Sequence record: PV467749.1
Origin: a phage
Length of the DNA: 64,000 nt
Direction: 5' to 3' (one strand)
Positions 1 through 64,000 of this stretch are shown here, one piece after another. Numbering within the stretch: position 1 is the stretch's first letter; every line of letters begins with the position of its first letter. The position numbers and the translations under genes are program-made. The notes below the pieces were generated by a model, which ran no database searches, was not told where the DNA came from, and saw only the letters and a list, made by a program, of their open reading frames with translations.

Positions 1-622
1 TACTTTGACGACCGATTATGATAGAATTTCGGATTAGAAAATTACTACAGTACTGAAAATCTTTGTAGTACTTGTCAAGGATATATGGCATTATCGCTTC
101 TTTCACTTCTTCATATCCATTTGAACTATCAATTGCAGTACAATAATCTTCTCGGTCTTTATTCCCTCGATGATTATCAAACTCGTACTCAAAGAATAAA
201 TTTTCATTTAATGAATTATTTGAACCAACTGATCCACTATAGTATGATTTTCTATCATTCATTCGATCATCGGGGCATGATGCATACATAGAAATGTCAT
301 GTGTTGACGTACCGATATAAATTTTCTTAGTAATGTGATTGTACGCGATGTAATCATAATCTTGTACTCCAGTGAGCATTAACTGGAACATCAATTCATC
401 AGGAACATCAATCAACGGGTACTCAAACTTCGAATATCTACTACGACAGAAATTCTTTTCAAATGCTCGATATGCGATGAAATCTTTTAGGTTTGTAATA
501 GATTCATGCTCATGTGTATTACTGGTGCGTACATTGACATTAGTAGACGAGCAATACCCTTCAGATTCTTCTGTGTAGTCATAATAACCCTTACTGTAGT
601 CAACGATTAGATAAAGTTTCAT
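1..622 (-). CDS. family A (FQ-motif) paralog, 3' end outside window
   Basis: ORF open to window edge; ATG at 620-622 preceded by GGAG; contains DELMFQLML. Confidence 0.5.
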   Translation of the reverse strand, partial: MKLYLIVDYSKGYYDYTEESEGYCSSTNVNVRTSNTHEHESITNLKDFIAYRAFEKNFCRSRYSKFEYPLIDVPDELMFQLMLTGVQDYDYIAYNHITKKIYIGTSTHDISMYASCPDDRMNDRKSYYSGSVGSNNSLNENLFFEYEFDNHRGNKDREDYCTAIDSSNGYEEVKEAIMPYILDKYYKDFQYCSNFLIRNSIIIGRQS

Positions 623-633
623 ATATCTCCAGA

Positions 634-664
634 CAAAAAAAGGACGAGATATTATATCCCGTCC
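634..664 (-). terminator. intrinsic terminator
   Basis: Hairpin GGACGAGAT..ATCCCGTCC 642-664 next to A-run 634-641 (U-run on minus RNA), just 3' of gene 674-979. Confidence 0.5.
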
Positions 665-673
665 TTTGGTTTA

Positions 674-979
674 TTAGTGGCTTGCCCAGCAGTAAACAGG
701 ACGTAGATTTTCCATTGGGTTTACTTCAGGCTTCAGTACTGTAACACGAACTTCATACGGAGTACCATCTGCATGATGGAACGTTTCGTAATGAATACTC
801 TCAATGAAGGTTTCATATTCTTCTTGAGAACGAGCACGAACTGATGGGGAATATTTCTTTTTGGTATCTGATTTTAGTGTAACACTTACTAGTTCTGATT
901 CTTCACCATTTTCAAGTTTATTGAAATCGAACTCTGGTACACCTTCAAACATATCAAATTTCATTCCGTTGTCTTCCAT
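674..979 (-). CDS. hypothetical protein
   Basis: 101 aa ORF, minus strand, terminator downstream. Confidence 0.5.
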   Translation of the reverse strand: MEDNGMKFDMFEGVPEFDFNKLENGEESELVSVTLKSDTKKKYSPSVRARSQEEYETFIESIHYETFHHADGTPYEVRVTVLKPEVNPMENLRPVYCWASH

Positions 980-1030
980 TTTAAATTCCTTTTTATATAA
1001 TGTTAGTTAGATAGTTTTTAATAAATCAGA

Positions 1031-1417
1031 TTAGATTACGTCATACGGTAGAGTACCGTGACGGAATTTATCAAGTTGTGCAAGAACTTCTTTACGTTCG
1101 ACAATCTCTGGCACATCTTCTTGCAGTTGGTCACATACTTCAACGATGAAATCCCAATCGCTCTCACAACTCACACGTACTGCTTCAATTGTTTTCCAAT
1201 CAGCACTAATTTCACCTTCAGGATTTACATACGAAGGCCATACCTTTCCATAGTCTTGTACTGATTTGTCGTTAAGAACACGAATAGCATTGAAAATCTG
1301 TCCAGTACTGAAGTGTTTAGTATTCTTCATGTCTTCTAAGCAACATAGCTTAGGTTCACCCTGGACTTCAATCAGAAGTACACCACCAATAGCTTTTAGA
1401 ACAGAACTTGTATTCAT
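1031..1417 (-). CDS. hypothetical protein
   Basis: 128 aa ORF, minus strand. Confidence 0.5.
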   Translation of the reverse strand: MNTSSVLKAIGGVLLIEVQGEPKLCCLEDMKNTKHFSTGQIFNAIRVLNDKSVQDYGKVWPSYVNPEGEISADWKTIEAVRVSCESDWDFIVEVCDQLQEDVPEIVERKEVLAQLDKFRHGTLPYDVI

Positions 1418-1488
1418 CTATATCTCCATTTATCAAAAAAAGATGTGAACATTATATCACAAGGAATTGTCATGTCCACAATATTTTA

Positions 1489-1782
1489 TCAAATAGTCAA
1501 ACTTTCGTGCCAGTTATTGAAATCGTTAATAGCCAGCATAAACATATTCTCATCATTAAATTCTAGAATATGTTCATTGTATAAGTAGCTAATGTACTTA
1601 TTACTACAGTGTTTGCTATTCATAATTAGCATTTCAACTGCACGTTCATACGAACATGGGCTGAGATACAATTTTGTTCCATCAGGATGCTCAATCTCCA
1701 CAGCACCAGGTGGAATAAAACGTTCACCAGTATAAGGGATATACGGCTCTGTTTTGAAAATAAGTTTGAATTTAGTATCCAT
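1489..1782 (-). CDS. hypothetical protein
   Basis: 97 aa ORF, minus strand. Confidence 0.45.
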   Translation of the reverse strand: MDTKFKLIFKTEPYIPYTGERFIPPGAVEIEHPDGTKLYLSPCSYERAVEMLIMNSKHCSNKYISYLYNEHILEFNDENMFMLAINDFNNWHESLTI

Positions 1783-1798
1783 ACCAAATCCTCCATAA

Positions 1799-44026: not shown

Positions 44027-44029
44027 TAC

Positions 44030-49181: not shown

Positions 49182-49186
49182 ATTAA

Positions 49187-50994: not shown

Positions 50995-51015
50995 AGTGAT
51001 TCAGTACTTTAATTG

Positions 51016-51697: not shown

Positions 51698-51724
51698 AAA
51701 AACAAAAAAGCCCACCAGGTGGGC
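51698..51724 (-). terminator. intrinsic terminator
   Basis: Hairpin AGCCCACC..GGTGGGCT 51708-51724 with U-run on minus RNA, 3' of gene 51732-51962. Confidence 0.55.
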
Positions 51725-51731
51725 TATGTAC

Positions 51732-51962: not shown

Positions 51963-51983
51963 GATGTTACCCCGTAGTATCTA

Positions 51984-52283
51984 TCAACGGCAATTAATAA
52001 CGCCGGTATGCGTTACTTTCTCAGTATCCATTACAGTGACCGAACCGCGTTTAGTACTGGCATCATAATAAATTGTTGTGCTACCGTTTTCGTCTTCTTC
52101 ATGGAACGGGCCGTTTTTAAATGCTTCCGGCTGGATCTCTAAATCCTTTAATACAATCTCGCCAGTACTTTCATCGGTCATTGCAACAGTGCACTGAATG
52201 AATTTTTCACTACTTACATCTAATGACGCATTAACAGCGAAAGAGGAAACAGATAAAGCCAGGGCGATGATTGTAATTTTCAT
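51984..52283 (-). CDS. secreted or periplasmic protein with signal peptide
   Basis: 99 aa from ATG 52281-52283; N-terminus MKITIIALALSVSSFAVNA then S. Confidence 0.5.
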   Translation of the reverse strand: MKITIIALALSVSSFAVNASLDVSSEKFIQCTVAMTDESTGEIVLKDLEIQPEAFKNGPFHEEDENGSTTIYYDASTKRGSVTVMDTEKVTHTGVINCR

Positions 52284-52389
52284 TTGATTATCCTTAGTTA
52301 CCAGGGGAACCGCTCCCCTATGCAAAACATTATACGCGTTTAAAAACTAATTGCAAGTATTTTAATAAAAAGTATTTGAAAAATAATTG

Positions 52390-52418
52390 TTGACAACTGC
52401 ATCCAGTACTGGCATAAT
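52390..52418 (+). promoter_or_regulatory. plus-strand sigma70-like promoter, antisense to gene array
   Basis: TTGACA 52390-52395, 17 bp spacer with CAGTACTG, CATAAT 52413-52418. Confidence 0.45.
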
Positions 52419-52499
52419 TACTACATCAAGACGAAACAGTCACTAACCCACCGGGTGCCGAGATCCGTCTATTAAATGATTCAGTACTGAAAAAGTAAC

Positions 52500-52518
52500 G
52501 GGGAGTTATTATCTCCCC
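52500..52518. terminator. bidirectional terminator
   Basis: Hairpin GGGGAG-ttattat-CTCCCC; U-rich on both strands; 3' of minus gene 52525-52746 and of the short plus transcript. Confidence 0.5.
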
Positions 52519-52524
52519 GCGTTG

Positions 52525-52746
52525 TTATTTTGTAAGGTATAAACAGAAGTCGCCTTTATTTGCTACGCCGCCAGTGTAACGCGATGAATAGTTAGAAACG
52601 TCCTGGACTTCTGCTATTACCAGGGTATCATCATTCAATTCGTCGCAGAAGCAAACGGCTGGATCTTGTACGCCGATTTTGTCGGCATGTTCCCGCATAG
52701 ATTTAACCAGTGCTTCCAGTTGGGAAAGAGTAGTGATATTAGCCAT
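52525..52746 (-). CDS. hypothetical small protein
   Basis: 73 aa from ATG 52744-52746; track ORF extended through promoter. Confidence 0.5.
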   Translation of the reverse strand: MANITTLSQLEALVKSMREHADKIGVQDPAVCFCDELNDDTLVIAEVQDVSNYSSRYTGGVANKGDFCLYLTK

Positions 52747-52832
52747 TTTATTTTCCTCATTACCAGGGAGAACCATTTCTCCCTTTGATGTAAACCATTA
52801 TACAGTACTGAAAACTAATTGCAAGTACTTTT

Positions 52833-53093
52833 TCAATATTGTTTGTCGTCGTCTTCCTCGATGAATTGACCGACGAAATGATCTACTTTCGCTTTGAGGC
52901 TTTTATAATCTTCTTCTACTTCCTTTAAACGTTCCTGGTAGTATTCCAATGCTTCAAGATACGCCGCCTCAGCAGTTTTTGCACGCATGGCTAAATTCAT
53001 GCCACGCGTTTCATCAAATAGCCAATAACCATCGGTGCACTGGCTAATAGATAATGTCTTGCTTAGTGCTGTATAGCTAATTACTTTACTCAT
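52833..53093 (-). CDS. hypothetical protein
   Basis: 86 aa; charged helical C-terminal half; GAGGG SD. Confidence 0.5.
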   Translation of the reverse strand: MSKVISYTALSKTLSISQCTDGYWLFDETRGMNLAMRAKTAEAAYLEALEYYQERLKEVEEDYKSLKAKVDHFVGQFIEEDDDKQY

Positions 53094-53150
53094 TAGATAA
53101 CCCTCAGTAAAGGCGGGAACTATTACCCGCCATTATCTCAGTACTGAATA

Positions 53151-53390
53151 TTACATTCCAACCATTGCAGCACGGATCGCAGTAGTGCTATATTTGAATC
53201 CGTCCGGCGTTGTAGTAGTACCGTTGGCTTTTAATCTGCGGTACATACATTCCGCAGCAATATCTTTAGTTCTACTTTGTGCGATGCAACTTTGTGCAAG
53301 CCGATACAATGACTCACCGTTATTAATCCAAAGGCTTACATTCCAATGAGTTTTGTTTTTGTGTCCGTTGTAAGTTTTAGTACTAGCCAT
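53151..53390 (-). CDS. hypothetical protein, paralog of 55196-55435
   Basis: 79 aa from ATG 53388-53390; shared HKNKTHWNVSLWINN and PDGFKYSTTAIRAAMVGM. Confidence 0.55.
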   Translation of the reverse strand: MASTKTYNGHKNKTHWNVSLWINNGESLYRLAQSCIAQSRTKDIAAECMYRRLKANGTTTTPDGFKYSTTAIRAAMVGM

Positions 53391-53480
53391 TTTTAAATCC
53401 TCGTTTGAGCGGGGAACCACTCCCCGCCTTGATGTAAAGTATTATACGCTTTTAAACTTAGTTTACAAGTACTTTTTAAA

Positions 53481-54092
53481 TTAATATTCGATTGATTCCA
53501 CTACGCCATCAATAACATTGAATTGATATTCGTTACCCTCAATCAGTGCAGTAATGTTTTCAGTAGTGAATTGATCCTCATATGCATTCTCTAAATCACG
53601 GTACAACTTACGAGATAATTCACGGATCGCATCAGTCAGTAAGTTTTCCAGGTCATCAGCAAGTGCCGCTTGTTTTACAGTTAAATCAGTGTAGCGAGTA
53701 TCAACGCAACCGCTTACCGTGTTTTCGTGTGCGTAGCGAGAGTGTGAACGTTCTACACTCATTGCCAAATCATCTTCATTCAACAAGTGACGGATTGAAC
53801 GATATTTCGTTAACGCCTTAACCTTGCGTAAAAACTTCTCAGCGTCAACGTGGTTAGTACTGATTGATGCACCGTCACCTTGCGACCAAAAACCACTGTA
53901 TTGCAATTCAGCTTCATCTATGCCGTATTCTGGTAGTACTGTTTCTTTATAGTACTCGATAACGCCCTCAGCAAAGAAATTATCCTCACATGAACGCTCA
54001 CGATCCCGAACCAGTTCGATAGCCGCCGTTTTTTGTTCTGCGTTCAGTTCAGAAAAAGCCATAACAAAAGTAGTAGTAGTGATAGTTTTCAT
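53481..54092 (-). CDS. hypothetical protein
   Basis: 203 aa; motif YSGFWSQGDGASIS; no family recognised. Confidence 0.55.
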   Translation of the reverse strand: MKTITTTTFVMAFSELNAEQKTAAIELVRDRERSCEDNFFAEGVIEYYKETVLPEYGIDEAELQYSGFWSQGDGASISTNHVDAEKFLRKVKALTKYRSIRHLLNEDDLAMSVERSHSRYAHENTVSGCVDTRYTDLTVKQAALADDLENLLTDAIRELSRKLYRDLENAYEDQFTTENITALIEGNEYQFNVIDGVVESIEY

Positions 54093-54160
54093 TTTGTAAC
54101 CCTCATTCAGTAGTTGATGTAAGTATTATACGCTTTTAAAAACATTTGTCAAACTATTTT

Positions 54161-54235
54161 ATCAGGGGAGTTTTTCGTGTGCCTTACTCCTGGGCTACTT
54201 AACGGGAAGTTACTTATTTCGTTCCCCGTCCTGAT
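54161..54235 (-). ncRNA. candidate structured RNA element between tandem promoters (copy 2)
   Basis: 75 nt duplicate of 44375-44447; inner stem CGGGAA..TTCCCG replaces CGGGG..CCCCG. Confidence 0.3.
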
Positions 54236-54316
54236 GTAAAACATTATACGCTTATTGAGATAGTTTGCAAGTACTTTTTAAAAATAGTTTTCAGTACTGA
54301 ATAGTAAAAAAAAGTA

Positions 54317-54345
54317 TTGACAGCATTATCAAGTACTGGCATAAT
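54317..54345 (+). promoter_or_regulatory. plus-strand sigma70-like promoter
   Basis: TTGACA, 17 bp spacer with AGTACTG, CATAAT; followed by the ACCCACCGGGTGC box. Confidence 0.45.
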
Positions 54346-54522
54346 ATACCCCATGACAACAGCTAACCCACCGGGTGCACAATTGTAACTATACTAAACT
54401 AATTTTTCTATAGATACACTCCCGCACCCTATGGGCTACGGCTTATCTGCCAATGAATACATTATGCCAGTACTGACAAAATAAGTCAATACCGGCAATT
54501 GTAAATTTTTCAAAAAATATGA

Positions 54523-54753
54523 TTATACTGCAATCGCGTCCAGGCTGTAATAATAATAAGTGCCGTATTGGTGTACTTTATTACCTTTTATTTCAGTACT
54601 GAATGAATCCGAACGATTTGCATATGATGTTAATTTAAAGTACTTTGATTTGCTGATACGTTGCCATACACCACAGATCCGCTGTAAGTAAGTAGTTTTA
54701 TTCGTGGTCGTATCTTTTACGGTTTTAACTTCAGTCATATACATATTAGTCAT
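54523..54753 (-). CDS. hypothetical small protein
   Basis: 76 aa; PeSL cassette upstream. Confidence 0.5.
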   Translation of the reverse strand: MTNMYMTEVKTVKDTTTNKTTYLQRICGVWQRISKSKYFKLTSYANRSDSFSTEIKGNKVHQYGTYYYYSLDAIAV

Positions 54754-54840
54754 TTTTATTACTCCAGGTTATAGGCGGGAAGAGTTCCCGCTCTCGATGT
54801 AAAACATTATACGCCTTTAAACATAGTTTGCAAGTACTTT

Positions 54841-55107
54841 TTATTCAAGTACTGCAATCTTTTTAGTACGGTACACGGTCACGCGGTTGCCCTTTCGGTC
54901 GAGCTTTATTTCTACCACTCGACGCGATACACTATCGGGACTTTTTAAGGCCGCTAACCAGTACTGTAATGATCTGGCGGTACTACGCTTTACAATGGCC
55001 CAACGTTTACCACGTTCCGATTGTACGCCCATATCTTTAAACGTTGCCCCGTCCTGGCGTGCGGCGATCCGAGCTTGTTCACGCGTCGCAAAATACTTAA
55101 TATTCAT
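54841..55107 (-). CDS. hypothetical protein, paralog of 42859-43254
   Basis: 88 aa from ATG 55105-55107. Confidence 0.55.
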   Translation of the reverse strand: MNIKYFATREQARIAARQDGATFKDMGVQSERGKRWAIVKRSTARSLQYWLAALKSPDSVSRRVVEIKLDRKGNRVTVYRTKKIAVLE

Positions 55108-55195
55108 GCTGTTGCCCTTATCGTTGGTGTATGAATAAAACACTATTATAAAGTACTATCCCCGTGCAATAGTACTTTAAATAAATTCTATTCTA

Positions 55196-55435
55196 TTACA
55201 TTCCAACCATTGCCGCACGGATCGCAGTAGTGCTATATTTGAATCCGTCCGGTGTTTTATCTTGTCCAGTCTGTTCTAAAAATAACATCATATGACGGGC
55301 CGCATCATTGCGATTAGTGCTATCGTTAATAAAGTCCTGGGCCAACCGGTATAATGATTCATCGTTATTAATCCAAAGGCTTACATTCCAATGAGTTTTG
55401 TTTTTGTGACCTAAGAACATTTTTGATTTAGCCAT
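55196..55435 (-). CDS. hypothetical protein, paralog of 53151-53390
   Basis: 79 aa from ATG 55433-55435. Confidence 0.55.
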   Translation of the reverse strand: MAKSKMFLGHKNKTHWNVSLWINNDESLYRLAQDFINDSTNRNDAARHMMLFLEQTGQDKTPDGFKYSTTAIRAAMVGM

Positions 55436-55528
55436 TTTTTTAATCCTCTTATATAGTGGGGAACTATTCCCCACCTGATGTAAAACATTATACGCTTTTA
55501 AACTTAGTTTGCAAGTACTTTATTAAAC

Positions 55529-55891
55529 TTATTTGTAAATTTTGCCACTTTCTACCCATACCAGGAAACGAGGCATATTATCCCATGCATCTTGCTTTAA
55601 GTTTAAGCCGTGCAATTCCTCAGTTGTTGCCATGCCTGGGACTGGTTTACTATACACCGAGAATTTTTCGCCCATGTACTGATAAACCATCGTCAAATCA
55701 CTGGCGATCATCTTATGGATCATCGCATCAAGCATCACGGTCGCGGCGTATTGTTCACGCTTAAGCGGCAGCATTTTAATCAGTTCGCGGTATGCGTCAA
55801 TGTGAGTTTTAACCGTTGCCGCCGGAAGATCTTTCATCTCGTCGCGGAAGTTAACCAGGTTAGCAATAATTTTGGTGATTTGAGTCGCCAT
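55529..55891 (-). CDS. hypothetical protein
   Basis: 120 aa from ATG 55889-55891; track ORF extended through promoter. Confidence 0.55.
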   Translation of the reverse strand: MATQITKIIANLVNFRDEMKDLPAATVKTHIDAYRELIKMLPLKREQYAATVMLDAMIHKMIASDLTMVYQYMGEKFSVYSKPVPGMATTEELHGLNLKQDAWDNMPRFLVWVESGKIYK

Positions 55892-56199
55892 CGTTTTAAT
55901 CTCTCTTAAAAGTGAGTTAGGAGCGTTTCCCCCGTCTCGATGTAAAACATTATACGCCTTTAAACATAGTTTACAAGTACTTTCTACAAATACTTTTAAA
56001 ATAGTTTTCTTTCTATATAGGGAAACTATCATTCAGTACTGAATCAACCAAATCACTACTACACCCCGTAAAACGGCCTCAATCGCATTCTAACGCATTA
56101 TTACACCTAAGCTATACATTTGCACCATTCTAATCATTCCAGTGCGTTACGGGCCGTTTAAACGCGTTAAATTATTTTCAATTATTTTGTTTTTAGGTA

Positions 56200-56227
56200 T
56201 TGACTCAGTACTAAAAAAGCGTATAAT
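56200..56227 (+). promoter_or_regulatory. plus-strand promoter 1 of non-coding hub
   Basis: TTGACT, 16 bp spacer with CAGTACT, TATAAT. Confidence 0.45.
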
Positions 56228-56415
56228 TACTACATAGACGCGAGAAAGCGGATACCCCAGGGGGTGCGGAATTGTGCCCAAAATTCAAGATATAAAAAAA
56301 GGATACACTCCCGCACCCTAGCAGGTAAACGCACTTTCTCAGTACTGAAATATAGTACCATAGTCCGGCCCAGGATAGCAAGCAAATTAATTAAAACTTT
56401 TTTGCTTCCAGGGTA

Positions 56416-56443
56416 TTGCTTTATTTTTTCAGTACTGTATAAT
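56416..56443 (+). promoter_or_regulatory. plus-strand promoter 2 of non-coding hub
   Basis: TTGCTT, 16 bp spacer with CAGTACTG, TATAAT. Confidence 0.4.
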
Positions 56444-56540
56444 AGTTCCATCAAGTCGAGAAAGACTCAAGCCCACCGGGTGCATAGTTACGCCCAAAAT
56501 TCAGTACTGAAAAAATTTTTAAAAATATCCGTCCAGGTCG

Positions 56541-56569
56541 TTGACATTGCCCCCAGTTTATAAGATAAT
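56541..56569 (+). promoter_or_regulatory. plus-strand promoter 3 of non-coding hub
   Basis: TTGACA, 17 bp spacer, GATAAT; faces the iteron cluster. Confidence 0.45.
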
Positions 56570-56659
56570 GATTCCAGATTCAGAAAAATCTAACACCAGA
56601 TACTGCGGGGAAACTATCCCCACGCGGTAGGGGAACTATTGGAAAAAACAAAATAAAAT

Positions 56660-56810
56660 TTTGATTTAGCCGTCTATACTTCCAGACGTGTAACCATCTA
56701 GCCGTTTAGCCGTCCAAACGTCTAGCCATCCAGCCATCCAGAAATCTAGCCGTTTAGCCGTCTAGATGGATAGCCATCTTTACTTCCAGACTTCTGGAGG
56801 GCTAGACATA
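56660..56810. repeat. iteron cluster
   Basis: Short direct repeats TAGCCGT, CCATCCAG, GGCTAGA and twice TACTTCCAGAC within about 150 bp; no ORF. Confidence 0.55.
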
Positions 56811-57180
56811 TCTACGCCCAAAATCCATCCAGGGTAACTACACCCAAAATCCGTCAGTACTATACCATAGATCTATCTTTTGAAAGGGAGTATTCAGTAC
56901 TGCCATCATAGCCCTCACTATGTTACCCTAGGAGGATGAAGACTATCATGTAGTACTGAATACTGTTAGAGGGAATCCACCAGCTTGTGCTGGTGGCATA
57001 ATGCTTTAGATTAAAATCAGTACTGACACCATTCTGTTAATATCAGTACTGTTATTACGATTTTCATATGAGGTTCAAAAAGATGTACCACCACAGGAGG
57101 AACTATCTTTTCTGTACTGTCTCACGACAGGAGGTAGAGTAAATGAATTGTTCGCAGCAACTCATCTCTCTATGTAGAAC

Positions 57181-57209
57181 ATTATACAGTACTGAATCAT
57201 AATGTCAAT
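57181..57209 (-). promoter_or_regulatory. minus-strand promoter facing into the non-coding hub
   Basis: TTGACA 57204-57209, 17 bp spacer with CAGTACTG, TATAAT 57181-57186. Confidence 0.45.
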
Positions 57210-57875
57210 AGCTTTCTTTCATTATTCAGTACTGATATTCTTGAGAACTACCCGACTACAAACATCATTATATCCCACAAATCATAAACGTCCCAACGTA
57301 AATTTCAACTTTCGAAGAACCAACTTTTATTTCATAGGTACTCCAAAATTTTTAGGATCGAGATTTAGGATGGAGTACTAACCAACTTTTTGCTGGAGCC
57401 TCAAGGGGTAATTGAATTTTACCCCGAAGGGTAAAAGGGTAATTGAAATTAAGGTGAAAGTAATAATTCAGTACTAATCATTGCGTGATTACTTTTGATT
57501 ACATTTGATGTAATTTGCAAAATGGAAAAGGAGCTTGGAAACTACAAAGTACGGCAGACTTCCTCTGCCTACTTAGTGACATATCGACACCTTCAGTACT
57601 GAATACTTTTAGGGCAGTACTGAATCCTTCCCTAGCATTCTTGAGTAATCTTGTCTATAATAATCAGTACTGAATCATATATAATCATTCTGTGATTCTA
57701 CGGTGCTCATATAAATGTTTATATATGATTACTTATGACTACATATGATTACGGGGTTTAGCCTGGGGAGAATCCTAGTGATCGCATTTGTCCAGGCTGA
57801 ATTTTAACAATTCTTCTAATTGTTAAAGCCTGTCCAATGCTTTCCCTGCGGAGCTTCCCCTGTCTATATGTTGAA

Positions 57876-58082
57876 TTACTTCCTATATATAAGCATTAAC
57901 ATATAGTAGTACTGATTATGCTGTACATTCTCTTTAATATTATAAGGGTCTATAGCAATCTCGGTACATCTGTTAAATGCATATCTATTAAATGCCAGTA
58001 CTATTATAGATCTAATCCATGCTTGGTCAGTCGGTGGTAGTTTACTTATATAGTACTCTTTATAGTTTTTTATGTTCTGCAT
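57876..58082 (-). CDS. family C small protein
   Basis: 68 aa; conserved N-terminal K-[EY]-YY-x-KL and C-terminal Y..L.LIYR. Confidence 0.5.
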   Translation of the reverse strand: MQNIKNYKEYYISKLPPTDQAWIRSIIVLAFNRYAFNRCTEIAIDPYNIKENVQHNQYYYMLMLIYRK

Positions 58083-58093
58083 AGTATACCTTA

Positions 58094-58285
58094 TTATTTC
58101 AAAGTACCATATAGTACTCTTAATAGGAAGTAGTACGTATTAGAGATATCATTAGTAGTTAAAACAATCTTAGTACACATATTAAATTCGTATTGAGTCA
58201 TTGCCAGGGGGATTAAATTGTTAACCCATGCTTGTTCGTTTTCTTTGAGTTTACTTATATAGAAATCTTTATGTTCTTTATTCAT
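58094..58285 (-). CDS. family C small protein
   Basis: 63 aa; MNKEHKDFYISKL...LLRVLYG. Confidence 0.5.
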   Translation of the reverse strand: MNKEHKDFYISKLKENEQAWVNNLIPLAMTQYEFNMCTKIVLTTNDISNTYYFLLRVLYGTLK

Positions 58286-58487
58286 ATAGGAATAGTATAC
58301 CTATGATGCCGGAGTACATATTAGTACTGTTATTATTGTCGTTTGCGTTTAAGGTCATTTGAATACAATTATTGTAGCATAATCTGCCGAAATATGTATC
58401 AGTACTTAAAGGTGCTGTAGTCCTTAGAAACATTTGTTCTGTGGGGCTGAGGTGTTTGGAGTAGAATTCTTTATGTTCTTTATTCAT
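58278..58487 (-). CDS. family C small protein
   Basis: 69 aa; MNKEHKEFYSKHL; near-copy of 58861-59067. Confidence 0.5.
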   Translation of the reverse strand: MNKEHKEFYSKHLSPTEQMFLRTTAPLSTDTYFGRLCYNNCIQMTLNANDNNNSTNMYSGIIGILFLYE

Positions 58488-58492
58488 ATTAG

Positions 58493-58678
58493 TTAGTGTC
58501 TGTATATAAGTAATAGTAAGAATACGTACTGCACCTGTTCATCTTTAGTATTGAGTACTGTACGTATTGCGTCATGGAACAAGAATATAGTACTTGGGTC
58601 ATTAGAATTTAAGGGGTTTACGGGGACGGCGTGTTTGTAGTTCCCTTTAACAAATTGTATATAGTATTCTCTATGCAT
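58493..58678 (-). CDS. family C small protein
   Basis: 61 aa; MHREYYIQF...LLLLIYRH. Confidence 0.5.
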   Translation of the reverse strand: MHREYYIQFVKGNYKHAVPVNPLNSNDPSTIFLFHDAIRTVLNTKDEQVQYVFLLLLIYRH

Positions 58679-58679
58679 A

Positions 58680-58868
58680 TCAGTACCTATATATTAGGGC
58701 GAGAATGTAGTACAGTTTATATGTATTATAATCTGGGTTGATAGCACATAGTGTGTGGTAGTGGAATTGTTTGGTATTTTTCTTATCCTTGATATCTATT
58801 GGGATTTGTGGTATAAGCATTTGGGAGTTTAGATCGAGATGGCTTAAGTAGAATTCTTTGTTATTCAT
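58680..58868 (-). CDS. family C small protein
   Basis: 62 aa; MNNKEFYLSHL...ILALIYRY. Confidence 0.5.
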   Translation of the reverse strand: MNNKEFYLSHLDLNSQMLIPQIPIDIKDKKNTKQFHYHTLCAINPDYNTYKLYYILALIYRY

Positions 58869-59067
58869 AGAAGAATATTAGTCCCATTACGCCTGAGTAT
58901 TGAATATTTTTGTTATTGTTTTCTAAAGCTTCTAGAGTAATACGTATACAATTATTAAAGCAATCTCTGGCGTGTGGTGTATCTAAACGTAAAGGTGATA
59001 CACTCCTTAGAAACATTTGTTCTGATGCACTGAGGTGTTTGGTGTAAAATTCTTTCTGTTCGTTCAT
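58861..59067 (-). CDS. family C small protein
   Basis: 68 aa; MNEQKEFYTKHL. Confidence 0.5.
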   Translation of the reverse strand: MNEQKEFYTKHLSASEQMFLRSVSPLRLDTPHARDCFNNCIRITLEALENNNKNIQYSGVMGLIFFYE

Positions 59068-59077
59068 ATTGGCCTCT

Positions 59078-59266
59078 TTAGTACACGAAAGCTAGGTACA
59101 GTACATGATACAGTACTCGATGATAGCTATCAAAATCTAGTATACATGCTTTAGTGCACATAGTAAAGTACACTTTATCGTTTTGAGCATTGATACCGCG
59201 AGGTTTATCTAATAGATTAGTACTGAGGTACATTGGGAAATATTTTGTGTAGTATTCTTTATGCAT
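59078..59266 (-). CDS. family C small protein
   Basis: About 62 aa from the internal ATG (MHKEYYTKYF); track ORF 59078-59311 is longer. Confidence 0.45.
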   Translation of the reverse strand: MHKEYYTKYFPMYLSTNLLDKPRGINAQNDKVYFTMCTKACILDFDSYHRVLYHVLYLAFVY

Positions 59267-59267
59267 A

Positions 59268-59450
59268 TTAGTACCTGAATATAAGTAGGATAGTGTTATA
59301 TAATTGGTCATAGCTACTACTATTTTCTATACTGCGTTCTATGCAATTATTGAATCCCAGTACTGCCAAATCGTTATCCAGGGGGACTTTATATCTGGCG
59401 TAGTGTTCAAATATACTGGGGAGAAATTGTGTGTAGTATTCTTTGTGCAT
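59268..59450 (-). CDS. family C small protein
   Basis: 60 aa; MHKEYYTQFL...ILLIFRY. Confidence 0.5.
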   Translation of the reverse strand: MHKEYYTQFLPSIFEHYARYKVPLDNDLAVLGFNNCIERSIENSSSYDQLYNTILLIFRY

Positions 59451-59451
59451 A

Positions 59452-59643
59452 TTAGTACTTATATATTAGTAAAAGGATGTGATACAGTACTCTATTATAG
59501 TCCTCAATATATATCGAGGATTTAGTGCACTGAATGAAGTAGTCTTTTTCGTAGTCTTTTTCTATACTCAATTGTTTTGTTGGTACAAGGTGTTGGAGAT
59601 ACATTGGGAGTTTCTCTATGTAGTATTCTTTGTGGTTATTCAT
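59452..59643 (-). CDS. family C small protein
   Basis: 63 aa; MNNHKEYYIEKL...ILLLIYKY. Confidence 0.5.
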   Translation of the reverse strand: MNNHKEYYIEKLPMYLQHLVPTKQLSIEKDYEKDYFIQCTKSSIYIEDYNRVLYHILLLIYKY

Positions 59644-59651
59644 ATTATGTG

Positions 59652-59825
59652 TTATTTCGTGAAAACAAGGGTTAGTACTGCATAGTACAAGTCATACGTA
59701 TCTTTAGGGTTAATAGCACCTTTAATACATTCTTTCATTACTTCATTATAGATAATTTTAGTACTGAATGTATTGGATGTTACTATATCGGAATTAAGGT
59801 ACGAGAGGTAGAATTCTTTATACAT
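59652..59825 (-). CDS. family C small protein
   Basis: About 57 aa from the internal ATG (MYKEFYLSYL); track ORF 59652-59888 is longer. Confidence 0.45.
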   Translation of the reverse strand: MYKEFYLSYLNSDIVTSNTFSTKIIYNEVMKECIKGAINPKDTYDLYYAVLTLVFTK

Positions 59826-60477
59826 AGTTTGAAATATACGTAATGAGGTGATGAAATTTCTTATCAGTACTGATAAGTTCCTGTACATGTTTTGTTAGTT
59901 TGTACGCGTTTTTATAGAGTCCTGGATTATCGATTACAGTACTGTACATGAATTCTTCTTCCTCGGATAATTCTTTGTGTTCTAGTTCTTTGAGGAATTG
60001 CAGTACTGTATCAGTTTCGTTAGTACGTTGCTTTTGGAAGAAGTGCATGTTATCGTGTATTTTTTCTGAACCCATGCAGTACATATCGCCGATTTGGAAT
60101 TGTGCAGTACTGATATCATGGGTGCTATTACAATTCCCGAAGAAGTATACATTCCCGAAAGATAGAATTATAGTGCACGGGATATTATCCATGTGTATAT
60201 AGATAGATGCATTCTTTAGTGCTTTTGTGCTGGTATTAGTACTCAATACTTTTAAATCAGTATTATAGATATTAATAAAAGCAAGAGCTATATTATTTTT
60301 CTTCAAGTACGATTTGAGGTTCTTAGATACGAGAACATTTCTGGATTTTTTCTTTTTATTTCGTTTCTTTAGTACACACGGGTCGTAAGTATATGCTGGT
60401 GTAAAAGATTCTGCTTGAATACTGTTGAGGTATTTAAAGTGCTTAAGGTATTGTTTGCTGTGTGCATTAAGTTTCAT
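59818..60477 (-). CDS. family A-like protein embedded in family C array
   Basis: 219 aa; motif LSEEEEFMYSTVID (FM in place of FQ). Confidence 0.5.
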   Translation of the reverse strand: MKLNAHSKQYLKHFKYLNSIQAESFTPAYTYDPCVLKKRNKKKKSRNVLVSKNLKSYLKKNNIALAFINIYNTDLKVLSTNTSTKALKNASIYIHMDNIPCTIILSFGNVYFFGNCNSTHDISTAQFQIGDMYCMGSEKIHDNMHFFQKQRTNETDTVLQFLKELEHKELSEEEEFMYSTVIDNPGLYKNAYKLTKHVQELISTDKKFHHLITYISNYV

Positions 60478-60487
60478 TTGGTTTCCT

Positions 60488-60667
60488 TTATACAGATGCG
60501 AGAGCGAGGATTTCCCTGAAGGGATTATCTTTTGTTAGTGCGTGATGAATGCAGCTATTGAGATTAATATTTTTAGTACTATTAGTTGCCAGGTTGTAGT
60601 ACTTCACGAAGGTGTCGTACATGAAACGGTCTTTAATGCTTATGTGTTCTATATAGTATTCTTGCAT
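60488..60667 (-). CDS. family C small protein (below ORF-track cutoff)
   Basis: 59 aa ORF read by hand (MQEYYIEHISIKDRF...). Confidence 0.4.
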   Translation of the reverse strand: MQEYYIEHISIKDRFMYDTFVKYYNLATNSTKNINLNSCIHHALTKDNPFREILALASV

Positions 60668-60675
60668 ATTATTCC

Positions 60676-60864
60676 TTACATAGAGATGAGTTTCAGTACA
60701 TCAATATACATATAACGTTCAGATGACAGTACACGGGTAGTGATAATCTCAATCGATATATTTTTAATTCCATGTGCAGATGATTGATGGTGCTGAATAA
60801 ATGAGTTGTGCATACTTTGTTCTATGTGGTTTAGTTTATTGAAGTAGTACTCAAAAGTGTTCAT
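60676..60864 (-). CDS. family C small protein, subgroup VLKLI
   Basis: 62 aa; MNTFEYYFNKL...YIDVLKLISM. Confidence 0.5.
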   Translation of the reverse strand: MNTFEYYFNKLNHIEQSMHNSFIQHHQSSAHGIKNISIEIITTRVLSSERYMYIDVLKLISM

Positions 60865-60871
60865 GTCTACC

Positions 60872-61051
60872 TTAGATTAAGATTAGTTTAAGTACTTCTC
60901 TGTACGTGTACTTTTCGTTTTGTGCTTCTACTGTACACGAGAGTAGATAACGTTTTTTATCTCTTTTGTTCCCGACTGTGTAGTACCTTTGGAATTTATT
61001 ATAGTTGTATCTATCTTTGTGCTGGAGGTTATAGATATAGAATTCTTGCAT
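60872..61051 (-). CDS. family C small protein, subgroup VLKLI (below ORF-track cutoff)
   Basis: 59 aa ORF read by hand (MQEFYIYNL...YTYREVLKLILI). Confidence 0.4.
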   Translation of the reverse strand: MQEFYIYNLQHKDRYNYNKFQRYYTVGNKRDKKRYLLSCTVEAQNEKYTYREVLKLILI

Positions 61052-61059
61052 AGAGTACC

Positions 61060-61245
61060 TTAGATTGCTATCAGTTTGAGTACTTCAATATATGTGCGGT
61101 ACTCTGCTTTAATTAAATTTGTACACACTGTAAGGGAATTTCTTTGTATAAGTTTATTGCCGCTTTTATACGCATTTCTCCACACATAGAGATGAGATCT
61201 TTCAGGCATAGATAGTTTATTTGTATAGTACTCAAATGTGTTCAT
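61060..61245 (-). CDS. family C small protein, subgroup VLKLI
   Basis: 61 aa; MNTFEYYTNKL...YIEVLKLIAI. Confidence 0.5.
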   Translation of the reverse strand: MNTFEYYTNKLSMPERSHLYVWRNAYKSGNKLIQRNSLTVCTNLIKAEYRTYIEVLKLIAI

Positions 61246-61253
61246 ATATTACC

Positions 61254-61436
61254 TCAAATAGAGATTAGTTTAAGTACTTCTCTGTATGTGTACTTTTCGT
61301 TTTGTGCATCTCTTGTGCTTGTATATAGGTATCCTCGACGATATTTGTTGCTCCCGTTCTTGTAGTTGAATTCGAACTTATTGTAGATGAATCTATCGCC
61401 AGGCTGTAATTTACTTAAGTACAATTCAATGTTCAT
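61254..61436 (-). CDS. family C small protein, subgroup VLKLI
   Basis: About 60 aa from the internal ATG (MNIELYLSKL...YTYREVLKLISI). Confidence 0.45.
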   Translation of the reverse strand: MNIELYLSKLQPGDRFIYNKFEFNYKNGSNKYRRGYLYTSTRDAQNEKYTYREVLKLISI

Positions 61437-61446
61437 AGTATTCTCT

Positions 61447-61632
61447 TTACATATCAATAAGTTTCAGTACTGCTCTGTACGTGTACTTAGTTGTTAGTGC
61501 TTCTTTTATAGCAATACAGAAGTAATGTTGTTTGTCTCTTATACTACCGCGTTTGTAGTACCATACATTGGAGTTGTGGGTGTACTTGTCCCTGTCGGAT
61601 AGATTTTGGTAATAGTATAATATATGATTCAT
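61447..61632 (-). CDS. family C small protein, subgroup VLKLI
   Basis: 61 aa; ...YTYRAVLKLIDM. Confidence 0.5.
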   Translation of the reverse strand: MNHILYYYQNLSDRDKYTHNSNVWYYKRGSIRDKQHYFCIAIKEALTTKYTYRAVLKLIDM

Positions 61633-61841
61633 GGTAATGTAATTAGCCTTATTATGTTAAAGTACTCGGTCCCTGGTACACCTTGTAGAATATTATCAAC
61701 TACATTTTCTTGGTGCAGGATTAATACATTCGGTGCGGTTCTTTTAAGGTTTTTTAAAGTACTGTATTCTTGTTTAAGGATGAACTGTACATCTTTAGGG
61801 AGAATATCTAAGTAGTACTGGTGTATGTTCATAGTTTTCAT
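61629..61841 (-). CDS. family C small protein
   Basis: 70 aa; MKTMNIHQYYLDIL...IIRLITLP. Confidence 0.5.
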   Translation of the reverse strand: MKTMNIHQYYLDILPKDVQFILKQEYSTLKNLKRTAPNVLILHQENVVDNILQGVPGTEYFNIIRLITLP

Positions 61842-61852
61842 ATAGTACTCTT

Positions 61853-62038
61853 TTAGAACTTAAAGATGAGGTTCATGATAGATAAGTACTTAGTTTCAGG
61901 AAATTGATGTTCTATTGCATAACGTGTCTCCAGTCTGAAGTCAAATTTATAAAAGGGACTATTCATATCCATAGGTTCATTGGGAAATGAATCTCTGTAT
62001 TGTTTGTGCAGCTTACTACAGTAGAATTCTTTATACAT
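61853..62038 (-). CDS. family C small protein
   Basis: 61 aa; MYKEFYCSKL...IMNLIFKF. Confidence 0.5.
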   Translation of the reverse strand: MYKEFYCSKLHKQYRDSFPNEPMDMNSPFYKFDFRLETRYAIEHQFPETKYLSIMNLIFKF

Positions 62039-62039
62039 A

Positions 62040-62252
62040 TTAGTGCTCGATTAAAAGGGTTAGGATGTAATAGTATTGCATACTTTCTACCCCTTGTACA
62101 GCATTTCTTATTTTATTATTCCTGTACGAGTTCAAGAGTTTAGGACAATGTTTGAAGTTTATATAATTATTTTGTGTATACAGTAGGCTTTCTCGTAGAC
62201 CTTTTGTTGGTAGTGCATCAATGTAGTACTGTTCAATGTTCATAGTGTTCAT
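62040..62252 (-). CDS. family C small protein
   Basis: 70 aa; MNTMNIEQYYIDAL...ILTLLIEH. Confidence 0.5.
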   Translation of the reverse strand: MNTMNIEQYYIDALPTKGLRESLLYTQNNYINFKHCPKLLNSYRNNKIRNAVQGVESMQYYYILTLLIEH

Positions 62253-62476
62253 AGAGCTACCAGTACTAAGATTTTTGATAATTGTTTATTGCTATCCCCG
62301 CAGATGTTGCTGTGTAAAATACTCACTACAAGGGTATCAAGTGCATTGTTCAGCATAAGGTTACATCCAGTACTGTTATGTGTTTTTAGCTCAATTAGCC
62401 ACGAACTATCCGCGAGAAACTTCGCGTACTCTAGTTCATTTAGAGTATTAATGTAGTACTTAAGTGTAGTTGTCAT
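62249..62476 (-). CDS. family C-like small protein, first gene of array
   Basis: 75 aa; MTTTLKYYINTL...ILVLVAL. Confidence 0.45.
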   Translation of the reverse strand: MTTTLKYYINTLNELEYAKFLADSSWLIELKTHNSTGCNLMLNNALDTLVVSILHSNICGDSNKQLSKILVLVAL

Positions 62477-62562
62477 GTACAGTTCTCCTTATATTCCTTA
62501 TATTCCTTCTATAGTACATCAGTACTGAAAGGTTGTCAAGGGTTTTCTTTTTGGGGTAAATA

Positions 62563-62571
62563 TGATATAAT
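62563..62571 (+). promoter_or_regulatory. extended -10 promoter
   Basis: TGaTATAAT about 15 bp upstream of AGGAGG SD and ATG 62588; no good -35 at 17 bp. Confidence 0.35.
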
Positions 62572-62587
62572 GAATAAAGGAGGAAAT

Positions 62588-63724
62588 ATGTTACCTTTTG
62601 CAAGAATGGTTAAGTACGGGAACGTAGCACCAGATAAACTAAAAATACGTGATATTGTTGCAGGTGCTAATTCATTATTACTAATAACCGAGGATAATGA
62701 ATTATGGGTGCGTGGTAATAATGCGTATGGCAAATTAGGTATAGGAACTGATACTATAGTGAATGTAACCGAGTGGACTAAAGTTAGAGATGATGTTAAG
62801 TTTGCTTGTGCTAGTAATTTAGTATGCGTTGTATTAACTGTAGATAATAAAATTTTCTACTGTGGTGATCAATGGTTTGAATCTGGTGGTTCGACAAGTT
62901 CTAAAGTTGTTACATGGAAAGATGTTACGACACAATTTAGTGCAGTGAATCTAAGCACAGTTCGTGAAATGAAAATAACTTATTATTGTGTAGGATTACT
63001 TACAAATGATAATAGATTATATGCTAAAGGATATGATAATAACCAATCATTTGGTGGTTCAACAAGCAAAGTTAATGCTGTATTAGTTGCGTCAAATGTT
63101 TCAAAATTCTACACTTCTCTATCTGGTACTATATATTCTAGTACTACTGGTGGTTACTACCGCTGTGGTATAAGCAATACTGGAGCATTGGGTACTAGCA
63201 CAAATTTAACTTCTTATAATTTGTACTCTGCTCCCGAATTTGCATCCGAATGTGCAGTTGGTATGTCAACATTAAACTCTGGTATATTATATTATGATAC
63301 TAATGGTATCACTAGATATGTTATAGCAGGTCAAAATAGAAATTATCAACTAGGTAATTCTTCTTCAAATACCACAAACGTATATTCGTATACAGAATTA
63401 ACCGGATATAGAGGCAGGTTTAGGGATTTGTGGAGTGATATGAATAACTCTGTTCTTTCTTTTGCTATAAGCACAGATGGCAATACTTTATATTATGCTG
63501 GTACTAACAATACACTATCTTCTGGTGATCCTGGTGTTGAATATTCATCTGCATTTAAAGAAGTACCACACGGGTTTAATGATATAACAAAGGTGGTATC
63601 GTTAGCCTATCTATCTATAGTGCAAGATTCAACTGGATGGTATTATTCTGGAAATGCAACTACGTTATATGGTTTGCCATCGAGTGATGAATTTATACCA
63701 TTACCATTACCAACAATAATTTAA
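62588..63724 (+). CDS. RCC1-like repeat protein
   Basis: 378 aa from ATG after AGGAGG SD; repeats such as VRGNNAYGKLGIG and YAKGYDNNQSFGG. Confidence 0.5.
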   Translation: MLPFARMVKYGNVAPDKLKIRDIVAGANSLLLITEDNELWVRGNNAYGKLGIGTDTIVNVTEWTKVRDDVKFACASNLVCVVLTVDNKIFYCGDQWFESGGSTSSKVVTWKDVTTQFSAVNLSTVREMKITYYCVGLLTNDNRLYAKGYDNNQSFGGSTSKVNAVLVASNVSKFYTSLSGTIYSSTTGGYYRCGISNTGALGTSTNLTSYNLYSAPEFASECAVGMSTLNSGILYYDTNGITRYVIAGQNRNYQLGNSSSNTTNVYSYTELTGYRGRFRDLWSDMNNSVLSFAISTDGNTLYYAGTNNTLSSGDPGVEYSSAFKEVPHGFNDITKVVSLAYLSIVQDSTGWYYSGNATTLYGLPSSDEFIPLPLPTII

Positions 63725-63730
63725 ATACAG

Positions 63731-63757
63731 GCCAGTACTTGATACTGGCTTTTTTTG
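63731..63757 (+). terminator. intrinsic terminator
   Basis: Hairpin GCCAGTA-cttga-TACTGGC 63731-63749 followed by T7. Confidence 0.6.
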
Positions 63758-63790
63758 ATTAAATATAGTATAATGAATAAGGGAGGGAAT

Positions 63791-64000
63791 ATGTTACCTT
63801 TTGTAAGAATGTTTGATTATGGAAATGAAGCTCCTACCAACTCTGGTCGTTATAAAATATATTCCAGTGATTCTATGTATCTTCATGATACTTATACTGA
63901 CAAGTTGTATGCATCTTCTGCGACGAATTGGGGTACTGGTACAGGTGTAGCATCGAGTAAATTTATTCTTTGTGCGGAGAATGTTAAACGAGTTCTATTG
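63791..64000 (+). CDS. paralog of RCC1-like repeat protein, 3' end outside window
   Basis: Starts MLPFVRMFDYGN, same N-terminus as 62588-63724; GGGAGG SD; ORF open to window end. Confidence 0.45.
   Translation, partial: MLPFVRMFDYGNEAPTNSGRYKIYSSDSMYLHDTYTDKLYASSATNWGTGTGVASSKFILCAENVKRVLL

Follow-up and report, generated by a model that had tools for sequence, protein, structure and literature searches.

Why does one six-letter palindrome recur several times per kilobase throughout the DNA of a large bacteriophage? The question is raised by AGTACT in a stretch of 64,000 nucleotides from the phage record PV467749.1, here called the window, where 274 copies (4.3 per kb) make it the top-ranking hexamer. 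The original prediction, made from the letters of the sequence, had claimed that the word occurs several times per kb and above what base composition allows, and exact counting bears this out, the excess being larger than had been stated, with 21.4 copies expected from composition (order 0 Markov model). Models of order 1, 2 and 3 expect 19.0, 49.2 and 116 copies, respectively, so that the count also lies above di- and trinucleotide expectation. According to our analysis, the word is selected for as DNA well beyond the window, and we tentatively attribute this to a protein that recognises it.

Excess of AGTACT in the window and along the genome

By megablast, the window derives from a Rak2-like jumbo coliphage of the genus Asteriusvirus. 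Its closest record is that of Escherichia phage fEgEco12 (PP777464.1; 374,733 bp, ~98% identity), to which the window runs antiparallel. When the 64 palindromic hexamers of the window are ranked, AGTACT is the sole strong outlier at 12.8-fold, followed by GTGCAC (3.3-fold) and TGTACA (2.3-fold). Around the sites, C at -1 and G at +1 are each found in 45%, G at -1 in only 4%, and a weak symmetric preference makes positions -3/-4 T-rich and the mirror positions +3/+4 A-rich. The longer word CAGTACTG, with 63 occurrences, compares with 0.91 +/- 0.94 in dinucleotide-preserving shuffles of the window. The near-cognates TGTACT/AGTACA and TGTACA are enriched two- to fourfold. A longer repeat unit behind the sites was considered and rejected, as the flank logos give weak symmetric preferences and no repeat family. 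Word and flanks are symmetric and show no strand or orientation bias of the kind known for Chi, DNA uptake sequences (DUS) or FtsK-orienting polar sequences (KOPS); only the AGTACA variant of island 1, described below, is polar.

The complete fEgEco12 genome holds 1115 copies against 126 expected (8.8-fold), or ~1 per 340 bp. Genes for replication and structure hold 2-3 of them per kb. In both terminal repeats, as well as in the 9 kb ahead of the right one, the density is 6.5-8.6 per kb, and in two islands it is ~0. Within the coding sequences, which were taken from a greedy open reading frame (ORF) model with 642 genes, 882 copies were counted. This is 3.6-fold above the 244 +/- 14.5 obtained by shuffling synonymous codons within genes, a procedure that keeps both proteins and codon usage; shuffling the order of codons leaves 146. 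The ratio of observed to synonymously shuffled counts is 3.2-4.0 in all regions of the genome, be they early, replication or structural, with the exception of the islands. In non-coding DNA, the density reaches 11.5 per kb in the repeat and 10.6 just before it, as compared to 0.9-4.6 in other intergenic DNA, and it is because the non-coding DNA near the genome ends is so rich in sites that the overall density is higher there. Selection on AGTACT acts at the DNA level.

Proteins bear the traces of this selection. Ser-Thr and Val-Leu codon pairs had been proposed as a frequent source of the word inside genes, which proved correct and can be widened to all three codon phases, including Gln-Tyr: AGT-ACT, xAG-TAC-Txx and xxA-GTA-CTx account for 63, 48 and 72 copies in the window and for 431, 160 and 291 in fEgEco12. 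In the latter, AGTACT spells 54% of the Ser-Thr dipeptides, with 15% expected, and the dipeptides themselves are in excess (Ser-Thr 1.49-fold, Val-Leu 1.32-fold, Gln-Tyr 1.49-fold), while the reversed Thr-Ser and Leu-Val are not. The protein sequences of the phage are thus pulled toward the motif. Four of the six tRNA genes of fEgEco12 (Ser-UGA, Ser-GCU, Met, Asn and two Thr-UGU, at 290.9-295.1 kb of the record) decode Ser or Thr, and tRNA-Ser(GCU) reads AGU; the related Klebsiella phage RaK2 retains the Ser(GCU), Ser(UGA) and Thr(UGU) set. The match between this set and a motif-driven codon demand is circumstantial. Strong regular spacing of the sites was rejected, as their evenness over 285 kb is mild only (coefficient of variation 0.89 vs 1.00 at random; largest gap 2.0 kb vs ~3.0 kb expected).

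Sites are particularly dense in the direct terminal repeat, which measures ~20.5 kb in the window and 20,993 bp in fEgEco12. The repeat is annotated in phage vB_Ec-M-J; for fEgEco12, PhageTerm and restriction digests provided confirmation (PMC13070987). According to BLAST, positions 1-37102 of the window are unique DNA following the left repeat and positions 57574-64000 unique DNA preceding the right one; because unique DNA lies on either side, the source assembly carries a single, collapsed copy. It contains 148 AGTACT (~7 per kb). On its minus strand lie small early genes and ~40 early promoters close to the sigma-70 consensus. A non-coding hub at 56-57.9 kb had been described as rich in AGTACT, and 17 sites do lie between 56.0 and 57.9 kb, a stretch without a credible ORF. 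Many of them are the full (A)TTCAGTACTGAA(T) palindrome, and the best-quality sites of the window gather here, at the chromosome terminus. The same area holds degenerate 8-bp tandem repeats (CGTCTAGC / CATCCAGC and further variants; positions 56671-56822) ~0.8 kb inside the repeat from the genome end. This array is one of the few places bearing CTAG and may be a packaging, replication or DNA-ejection signal. Small paralogous genes occur on both sides of the repeat, among them two families of 110-190 amino acid ORFs spread across 12-31 kb and families of ~60-70 amino acid ORFs at 57.9-62.3 kb.

At the early promoters of the repeat, AGTACT takes up two fixed positions. In type A (20 promoters), it ends 21 nt upstream of TATAAT, and the -35 hexamer begins with its last T (AAAAAGTAC-TTGCAA). 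In type B (11 promoters), it ends 1 nt upstream of TATAAT (AGTACT-G-TATAAT). The original prediction had placed the word directly 5' of the -10 hexamer in many promoters; this holds for type B, but the commoner position is the one that adjoins the -35 hexamer. Some promoters of the window carry both sites together. In the repeats of RaK2 and of a third genus (L123), this two-site arrangement, agtacTTGACA-N9-agtactG-TATAAT, with starts 20 bp apart, is the rule, and the geometry has been kept between genera while the remaining spacer diverged. The site pairs have what looks to be an operator-like geometry in three genera, with palindromes over the edge of the -35 hexamer and beside the -10 hexamer that would lie on the same helical face.

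Between nearly all early promoters and the ribosome-binding site stands GTTTTACATC with a conserved G/C-rich hairpin in the 5' untranslated region (GGGGAGAA-ATGR-TTCTCCCC). It is found ~10-35 nt downstream of TATAAT across positions 37103-57573, for example at ~47555-47575 on the minus strand. RaK2 and L123 have hairpins of other sequence in the equivalent place (GGGGATACATAGTGTATCCCC; GGGGGAAACATCTTCCCCC). The hairpin is a compensated structure that may act as a stabiliser, processing or regulatory element of early mRNAs.

Two stretches of the window, at 21.65-29.6 kb and 31.75-37.2 kb, are without a single AGTACT, a feature absent from the original prediction. In island 1, the coding sequences instead hold 40 AGTACA on the sense strand against 15.7 +/- 2.7 expected, in all codon phases and with the same c..g flanks as at AGTACT, and only one AGTAC on the antisense strand. 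A weaker sense-strand excess of AGTACA also extends over positions 1-21600. AGTACA is selected here at the nucleotide level, as a strand-polar, 'half-mutated' form of the palindrome that is restricted to the region of paralogous small genes. Recent acquisition of the islands was considered and rejected, as the genes of island 1 and those that bear sites are paralogs of ancient origin (22-24% identity), the former having accumulated AGTACA instead; AGTACT and AGTACA do not correspond one to one between paralogs. Island 2 largely coincides with a tandem array of ~24 tightly packed paralogous ORFs of 65-85 amino acids (positions 31310-37005, minus strand) that has no AGTACT enrichment.

Table 1. 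Location in the window of AGTACT, of representative promoter sites and of the regions that differ in site content.
Feature	Position	Strand	Details
AGTACT, 274 copies	1-64000		Extended consensus TTnC-AGTACT-GnAA; 63 copies are CAGTACTG
Direct terminal repeat, one copy in window	37103-57573	-	BLAST of fEgEco12 repeat ends
Non-coding hub across the physical genome end	56000-57900		17 AGTACT, 12 CAGTACTG; repeat starts at 57573
Type A promoter site, example	55976-55981		AAAAAGTACTTGTAAA...N...TATAAT; TATAAT at 55949-55954, minus strand
Type B promoter site, example	57188-57193		AGTACT-G directly before TATAAT at 57181-57186, minus strand
Two-site promoter, example	52804-52829		AGTACT at 52824-52829 (-35) and 52804-52809 (-10); starts 20 bp apart
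Paralogous small-gene families	1-21600	-	80 AGTACT; 73 in coding sequences vs 20.2 expected (synonymous shuffles)
Island 1	21650-29600	-	0 AGTACT; 40 sense-strand AGTACA in coding sequences
Island 2	31750-37100	-	0 AGTACT in 5.4 kb
Unique region before right repeat, small paralogous genes	57574-64000		AGTACT ~6-8 per kb

Relatives, an unrelated phage lineage and the host

The enrichment is shared by Serratia phage BF (6.2-fold) and RaK2 (7.5-fold). All relatives in IMG/VR with at least 90% capsid identity have AGTACT at 3.2- to 6.5-fold and are entirely devoid of GCGC; in relatives at 64-72% capsid identity, neither AGTACT enrichment nor complete GCGC absence was found. Between fEgEco12 and BF (69.5% nucleotide identity), 31% of the AGTACT sites are positionally conserved, compared with 17% for hexamers generally, and the density of the word is equal in both phages (6.2-fold in each). 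Paralogs within the window at 22-24% amino acid identity have gained AGTACT independently and at differing positions. Individual sites therefore turn over while their density is maintained.

Loss of other palindromes goes along with this gain. GCGC is missing from the window (57 expected) and from the fEgEco12 genome (382 expected), as are 24 and 25 of the 64 palindromic hexamers, respectively, the latter across 375 kb. The view that restriction avoidance is an unlikely cause of the pattern is upheld, as AGTACT is enriched 12.8-fold in the window and 8.8-fold in the genome while nearly all other palindromes are purged. In the Rak2-like clade as well as in the Leclercia siphovirus lineage described next, GCGC absence always accompanies AGTACT excess; phages T5 (7 AGTACT vs 9.9 expected) and T4 (3 vs 8.5) have no such signature and do not avoid GCGC. 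A more distant relative, L037 (IMGVR_UViG_3300044959_000303; 21 kb locus, capsid 65% identical), favours another palindrome, TTCGAA, with 68 copies against 7.1 expected (9.6-fold). Its coding sequences contain 58 of them against 21.6 +/- 3.9 in synonymous shuffles, in all three phases and with T/A-rich flanks, which suggests that lineage-specific favoured palindromes recur in this phage group. ATCGAT is also frequent in this locus (25 vs 7.1), and GCGC is nearly absent (3 vs 25).

The same signature was found in phages of a different kind. An IMG/VR scan for site clusters returned, besides fragments of Rak2-like repeats, ~16 contigs of 25-34 kb with a GC fraction of 0.39-0.43 and AGTACT enriched 11- to 20-fold (L145, L160, L163, L134, L117, L124, L169, L130 and others). 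They have no GCGC and lack ~30 palindromic hexamers. Stricter multi-site patterns, meant to give a cleaner census of such lineages, proved too rare even among true positives. We found neither nucleotide similarity to fEgEco12 nor a close cultured relative for these contigs. Their genes include those for a lambda-like terminase (small and large), a portal and a fused protease-capsid protein, as well as their own major tail, tape-measure and distal tail proteins and a long tail fibre with homologs overwhelmingly in phages of Escherichia, Salmonella and Klebsiella. Relatives are integrated in Leclercia chromosomes (L215 and L216), with capsids 88% and 74% identical and the signature present throughout the 21.8 kb examined. 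The second lineage consists of uncultured small temperate siphoviruses. Two other origins were considered and rejected: the contigs share no nucleotide similarity with jumbo terminal repeats of which they might be fragments, and their full head and tail set speaks against satellites mimicking a jumbo helper. Accessory genes of the lineage code for a RelA/SpoT-like protein, a GTPase and a DUF6216 protein.

The small phages resemble the jumbo phages in the details of the motif, with C in 54% and G in 8% at -1, and T in 43-45% and C in 11% at -3/-4. Coding AGTACT are four- to fivefold above synonymous shuffles. Down to its fine structure, the motif is the same in both lineages, which are unrelated.

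The host genome carries no such signature. Two 50-kb samples of Escherichia coli K-12 hold 3 AGTACT each (0.06 per kb), where base composition predicts 11.6 and dinucleotides 4.6-4.9 +/- 2.2. A host-specific depletion, initially taken as evidence for a host reader, was withdrawn, as 3 copies per 50 kb lie within dinucleotide expectation. The ratio of phage to host density is 50-100. A host word that the phage does share is the Chi octamer GCTGGTGG, of which the window holds 11 copies against 0.38 expected, all within the repeat (38464-56996) and 9 on the minus strand. In fEgEco12, 34 + 14 copies compare with ~2.5 expected, 10 in each repeat. This suggests that host Chi serves to restrain RecBCD when the enzyme enters the linear, unmodified genome from one end. 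The small siphovirus lineage has no Chi excess.

Possible readers of the palindrome

We posit, tentatively, that a dimeric DNA-binding protein recognises AGTACT at sites distributed along the genome, and that the word doubles as paired operators of the early promoters; among the explanations considered, this is the one we find most credible. A two-fold symmetric protein would recognise a palindrome of ~14 bp, TTnC-AGTACT-GnAA, and selection would keep its sites dense along the whole chromosome, at ~3 per kb overall, ~7 in the repeats and ~9 at the non-coding genome end. The phage DNA would be occupied or marked by this reader, unlike the host chromosome with its ~0.06 sites per kb. At early promoters, the site pair would serve as an operator pair and render early transcription responsive to the reader, most simply by shut-off. 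Binding may have the purpose of marking or organising phage DNA, protecting its ends and shutting off early genes.

We base this reading on the symmetric and graded flanks over ~14 bp, the near-cognates, the density kept through turnover, the best sites at the terminus and the paired promoter sites. Because two-fold symmetry is combined with graded flanks, the pattern resembles the footprint of a dimer rather than a sharp enzyme site, and we infer that the reader is a DNA-binding protein rather than an enzyme. As to its origin, the evidence points in two directions. A second lineage that has the same fine structure and no gene in common with the jumbo phages speaks for a conserved enterobacterial factor. 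The operator-like sites at early promoters favour a phage-encoded reader, since it is hard to see why a phage would maintain binding sites of a host repressor at these promoters. The earlier suggestion of a binding site for a phage protein stands as far as protein binding is concerned, which is the best supported option, but phage coding is less certain, given that an unrelated lineage has the same motif and no shared candidate gene.

Several points weigh against such a binding protein. No candidate for the reader emerged: Pfam recognises no DNA-binding domain, helix-turn-helix included, in the annotated 'regulators' of fEgEco12, and Pfam searches of the small-phage ORFs gave neither a DNA-binding domain nor a DNA methylase. 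BLASTP and phmmer comparisons, in which the small-phage genomes were partial, detected no reader gene shared by both lineages; only a lysozyme domain is common to them. Two proteins of the repeat, both on the minus strand, are conserved in three genera within an otherwise fast-evolving region and have homologs only inside the clade. These are g012 (165 amino acids, positions 51016-51513), with a long helix and a small C-terminal domain of a beta-hairpin and two helices, and g017 (89 amino acids, ~49305-49574), which is all-beta. Both were rejected as readers, their AlphaFold models (predicted local distance difference test scores of 64 and 79) having no significant Foldseek hit against the PDB. 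Furthermore, the strand-polar AGTACA of island 1 is not readily explained by a symmetric binding protein, and the promoter positions could in part be a legacy of promoter cassettes that were duplicated from a common ancestor, without bearing on function. Finally, ~2-3 bound sites per kb in highly transcribed late genes could obstruct transcription, for which reason binding would have to be weak, transient or stage-specific.

In a more specific version, AGTACT-rich and GCGC-free sequence is an identity tag: with 3-7 sites per kb in phage DNA and 0.06 in that of the host, a reader in infected enterobacteria would distinguish the two by the density of the palindrome. We regard this identity tag as speculative and rather unlikely. 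It would serve the protection, organisation or timing of the phage chromosome without base modification, and it would have been adopted independently by a clade of virulent jumbo myoviruses and a small temperate siphovirus, with sister lineages using TTCGAA.

The original prediction also offered a DNA modification target, i.e., covalent modification of AGTACT by a phage or host enzyme that marks self or alters physical or regulatory properties. The word is a short palindrome typical of Type II methyltransferase recognition, the phage encodes two DNA methyltransferases, one small-phage locus ends in a weakly S-adenosylmethionine-methyltransferase-like ORF, and paired promoter sites could give methylation-sensitive transcription. 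We nevertheless consider it unlikely. The recognisable phage enzymes do not fit the word and were rejected as its readers: g455 is a compact C5 methylase nearest to Dnmt3 catalytic domains (CpG type), RaK2 DNA is reported to be CpG-methylated (PMC3622015), g162 is a phage Dam-family enzyme, and AGTACT contains neither CpG nor GATC. An enzyme that was not recognised as a methylase may still have this specificity. Graded flanks and enriched near-cognates are atypical for enzyme recognition, and there is no obvious benefit in enriching a modification target. The DNA of fEgEco12 was cut as predicted by ten enzymes, ScaI and RsaI not being among them (PMC13070987).

Alternatively, AGTACT may be a DNA-processing site, such as a nick or cleavage site, a primase start or a recombination hotspot, that serves replication, recombination or unlinking of a very large genome. 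If cut as A^GTAC^T, the word would be left with a 4-base stagger, as produced by type II topoisomerases or a symmetric nuclease, the density of sites peaks at the genome ends, and the phage encodes a T4-type topoisomerase II, a primase and recombination nucleases. This explanation is retained, as quite unlikely, mainly because the polar half-site of island 1 is what would be expected of an enzyme acting on single strands, with the two strands being acted on separately. It leaves the fixed sites over the -35 and -10 hexamers unexplained, symmetric cutting at ~1100 sites would be dangerous, and the examined parts of the small siphoviruses that share the motif contain no T4-type replication or topoisomerase gene. 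No such sequence requirement is known for the topoisomerase, primase and nuclease families.

Three further explanations appear very improbable. The first is that AGTACT is nothing but a promoter element, that is, the spacer requirement that had been proposed or an upstream requirement of the strong sigma-70 early promoters, with all other copies incidental. Its valid part is that ~31 of the 274 sites sit at two fixed distances from TATAAT that are conserved in other genera. These are, however, ~11% of the sites in the window and ~3-6% of those in the genome; ~89% of the window sites lie outside the two positions, and coding copies, including those in late structural genes, stand well above synonymous shuffles (882 sites, 3.6-fold; regionally 3.2-4.0). 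Moreover, the TG of the type B site falls at -14/-13 and not at the extended -10 positions -15/-14.

The second is a neutral by-product of composition, codon pairs, mutation or repair bias, or palindrome purging, which is equally hard to uphold. The pentamers AGTAC and GTACT are common, so that 232 of the 274 copies are already expected under a Markov model of fourth order, and codon usage favours AGT, ACT and GTA. A model of such high order merely absorbs the signal, however, and the excess in genes persists after shuffles that preserve codon usage. Enrichment is highest in the non-coding part of the repeat, the dipeptide skew has one orientation only, one-mismatch neighbours of AGTACT are not depleted in the window as conversion bias would require, and neither T4 and T5, which share the host, nor the host itself, nor the two islands of the same genome have an excess.

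The third, that the sites bind SlmA and let the phage DNA soak up or activate this protein to block host cell division, can scarcely be maintained. As enterobacteria in general have a conserved SlmA, such binding could account for a motif common to two unrelated lineages. AGTACT equals the centre (positions 4-9) of the SlmA consensus GTGAGTACTCAC (PMC3020112). SlmA strongly needs G and T at the first two positions and a purine at the third, together with their mirror images (PMC3020112), but the phage sites prefer T, n and C there, G at -1 is found in 2-11%, and sites with at most two flank mismatches to the consensus number 9 against 27 expected by chance; identity with SlmA sites was rejected on these flanks despite the identical core.

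Comparison with known systems and significance

A distributed site for a dimeric binder has parallels in several systems. For a 'self' word whose message lies in its density, Chi and the nucleoid-occlusion sites come closest. Like Chi (GCTGGTGG, read by RecBCD in E. coli), AGTACT is a dense short word spread chromosome-wide that would act by number and distribution rather than at fixed loci and would mark the DNA as own, and it likewise shows turnover at maintained density; the phage has in addition the excess of genuine Chi in its repeat. Chi is asymmetric and orientation-dependent, whereas AGTACT is palindromic with symmetric flanks and is partly found at fixed promoter positions. With 1 per 340 bp, it is also far denser than Chi, which occurs roughly once per 4-5 kb. 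The sites of the nucleoid-occlusion proteins SlmA (E. coli) and Noc (Bacillus subtilis) are, similarly, scattered palindromes for a dimeric binder that report the location of DNA. They number tens per bacterial chromosome, far fewer than the >1000 AGTACT in a 375-kb phage genome, and the flanks that SlmA requires are missing.

The closest functional parallels, which match in geography too, are TF1 of phage SPO1 and p6 of phage phi29, abundant phage proteins that coat the genome and repress early transcription. TF1 prefers early promoters in the terminal redundancy and p6 the genome ends, which corresponds to the terminal repeat, early promoters and genome end where AGTACT is concentrated. They differ in that TF1 reads hydroxymethyluracil and p6 bendability, neither of them a defined hexamer, and no homolog was identified among the fEgEco12 regulators and early proteins examined. 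DUS and uptake signal sequences (USS) of Neisseria and Haemophilus are short words at ~1 per kb that have a specific protein reader and through which selection or drive shapes coding sequence. They are non-palindromic, belong to bacterial chromosomes and function in DNA uptake, a process with no counterpart in the phage. As in Chi, DUS and KOPS, the excess of AGTACT is genome-wide, goes beyond codon and composition effects, and is kept in density through turnover. The word is also identical to the ScaI/Eco255I site AGT^ACT, and phages avoid restriction targets, but AGTACT is enriched ~ninefold while nearly all other palindromes containing G+C are purged.

Among the papers searched, none combines AGTACT with jumbo phages, and the genome papers on CBB, RaK2 (PMC3622015) and fEgEco12 (PMC13070987) describe promoters, methylases or termini and do not mention the motif. 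As far as we could find, a palindromic, putative recognition word of such extreme density in a phage, common to unrelated lineages, is new.

Phages are known to purge short palindromes against restriction. AGTACT has been driven the opposite way, to the point of biasing the neighbouring amino acids, which implies that a strong selective agent acts on the entire chromosome in a group of jumbo phages with therapeutic relevance. The finding bears on the shut-off of early genes in the 21-kb repeats and on how a phage distinguishes its own DNA from that of the host. It also predicts extreme sensitivity of these phages to hosts with a ScaI-type restriction system, and the motif offers a simple diagnostic for these lineages in metagenomes. 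The shared signature in a prophage lineage, together with the other palindrome in a sister lineage, suggests a general, sequence-only marking of unmodified phage DNA. If true, such an identity tag would be the phage counterpart of the bacterial Chi 'self' signal.

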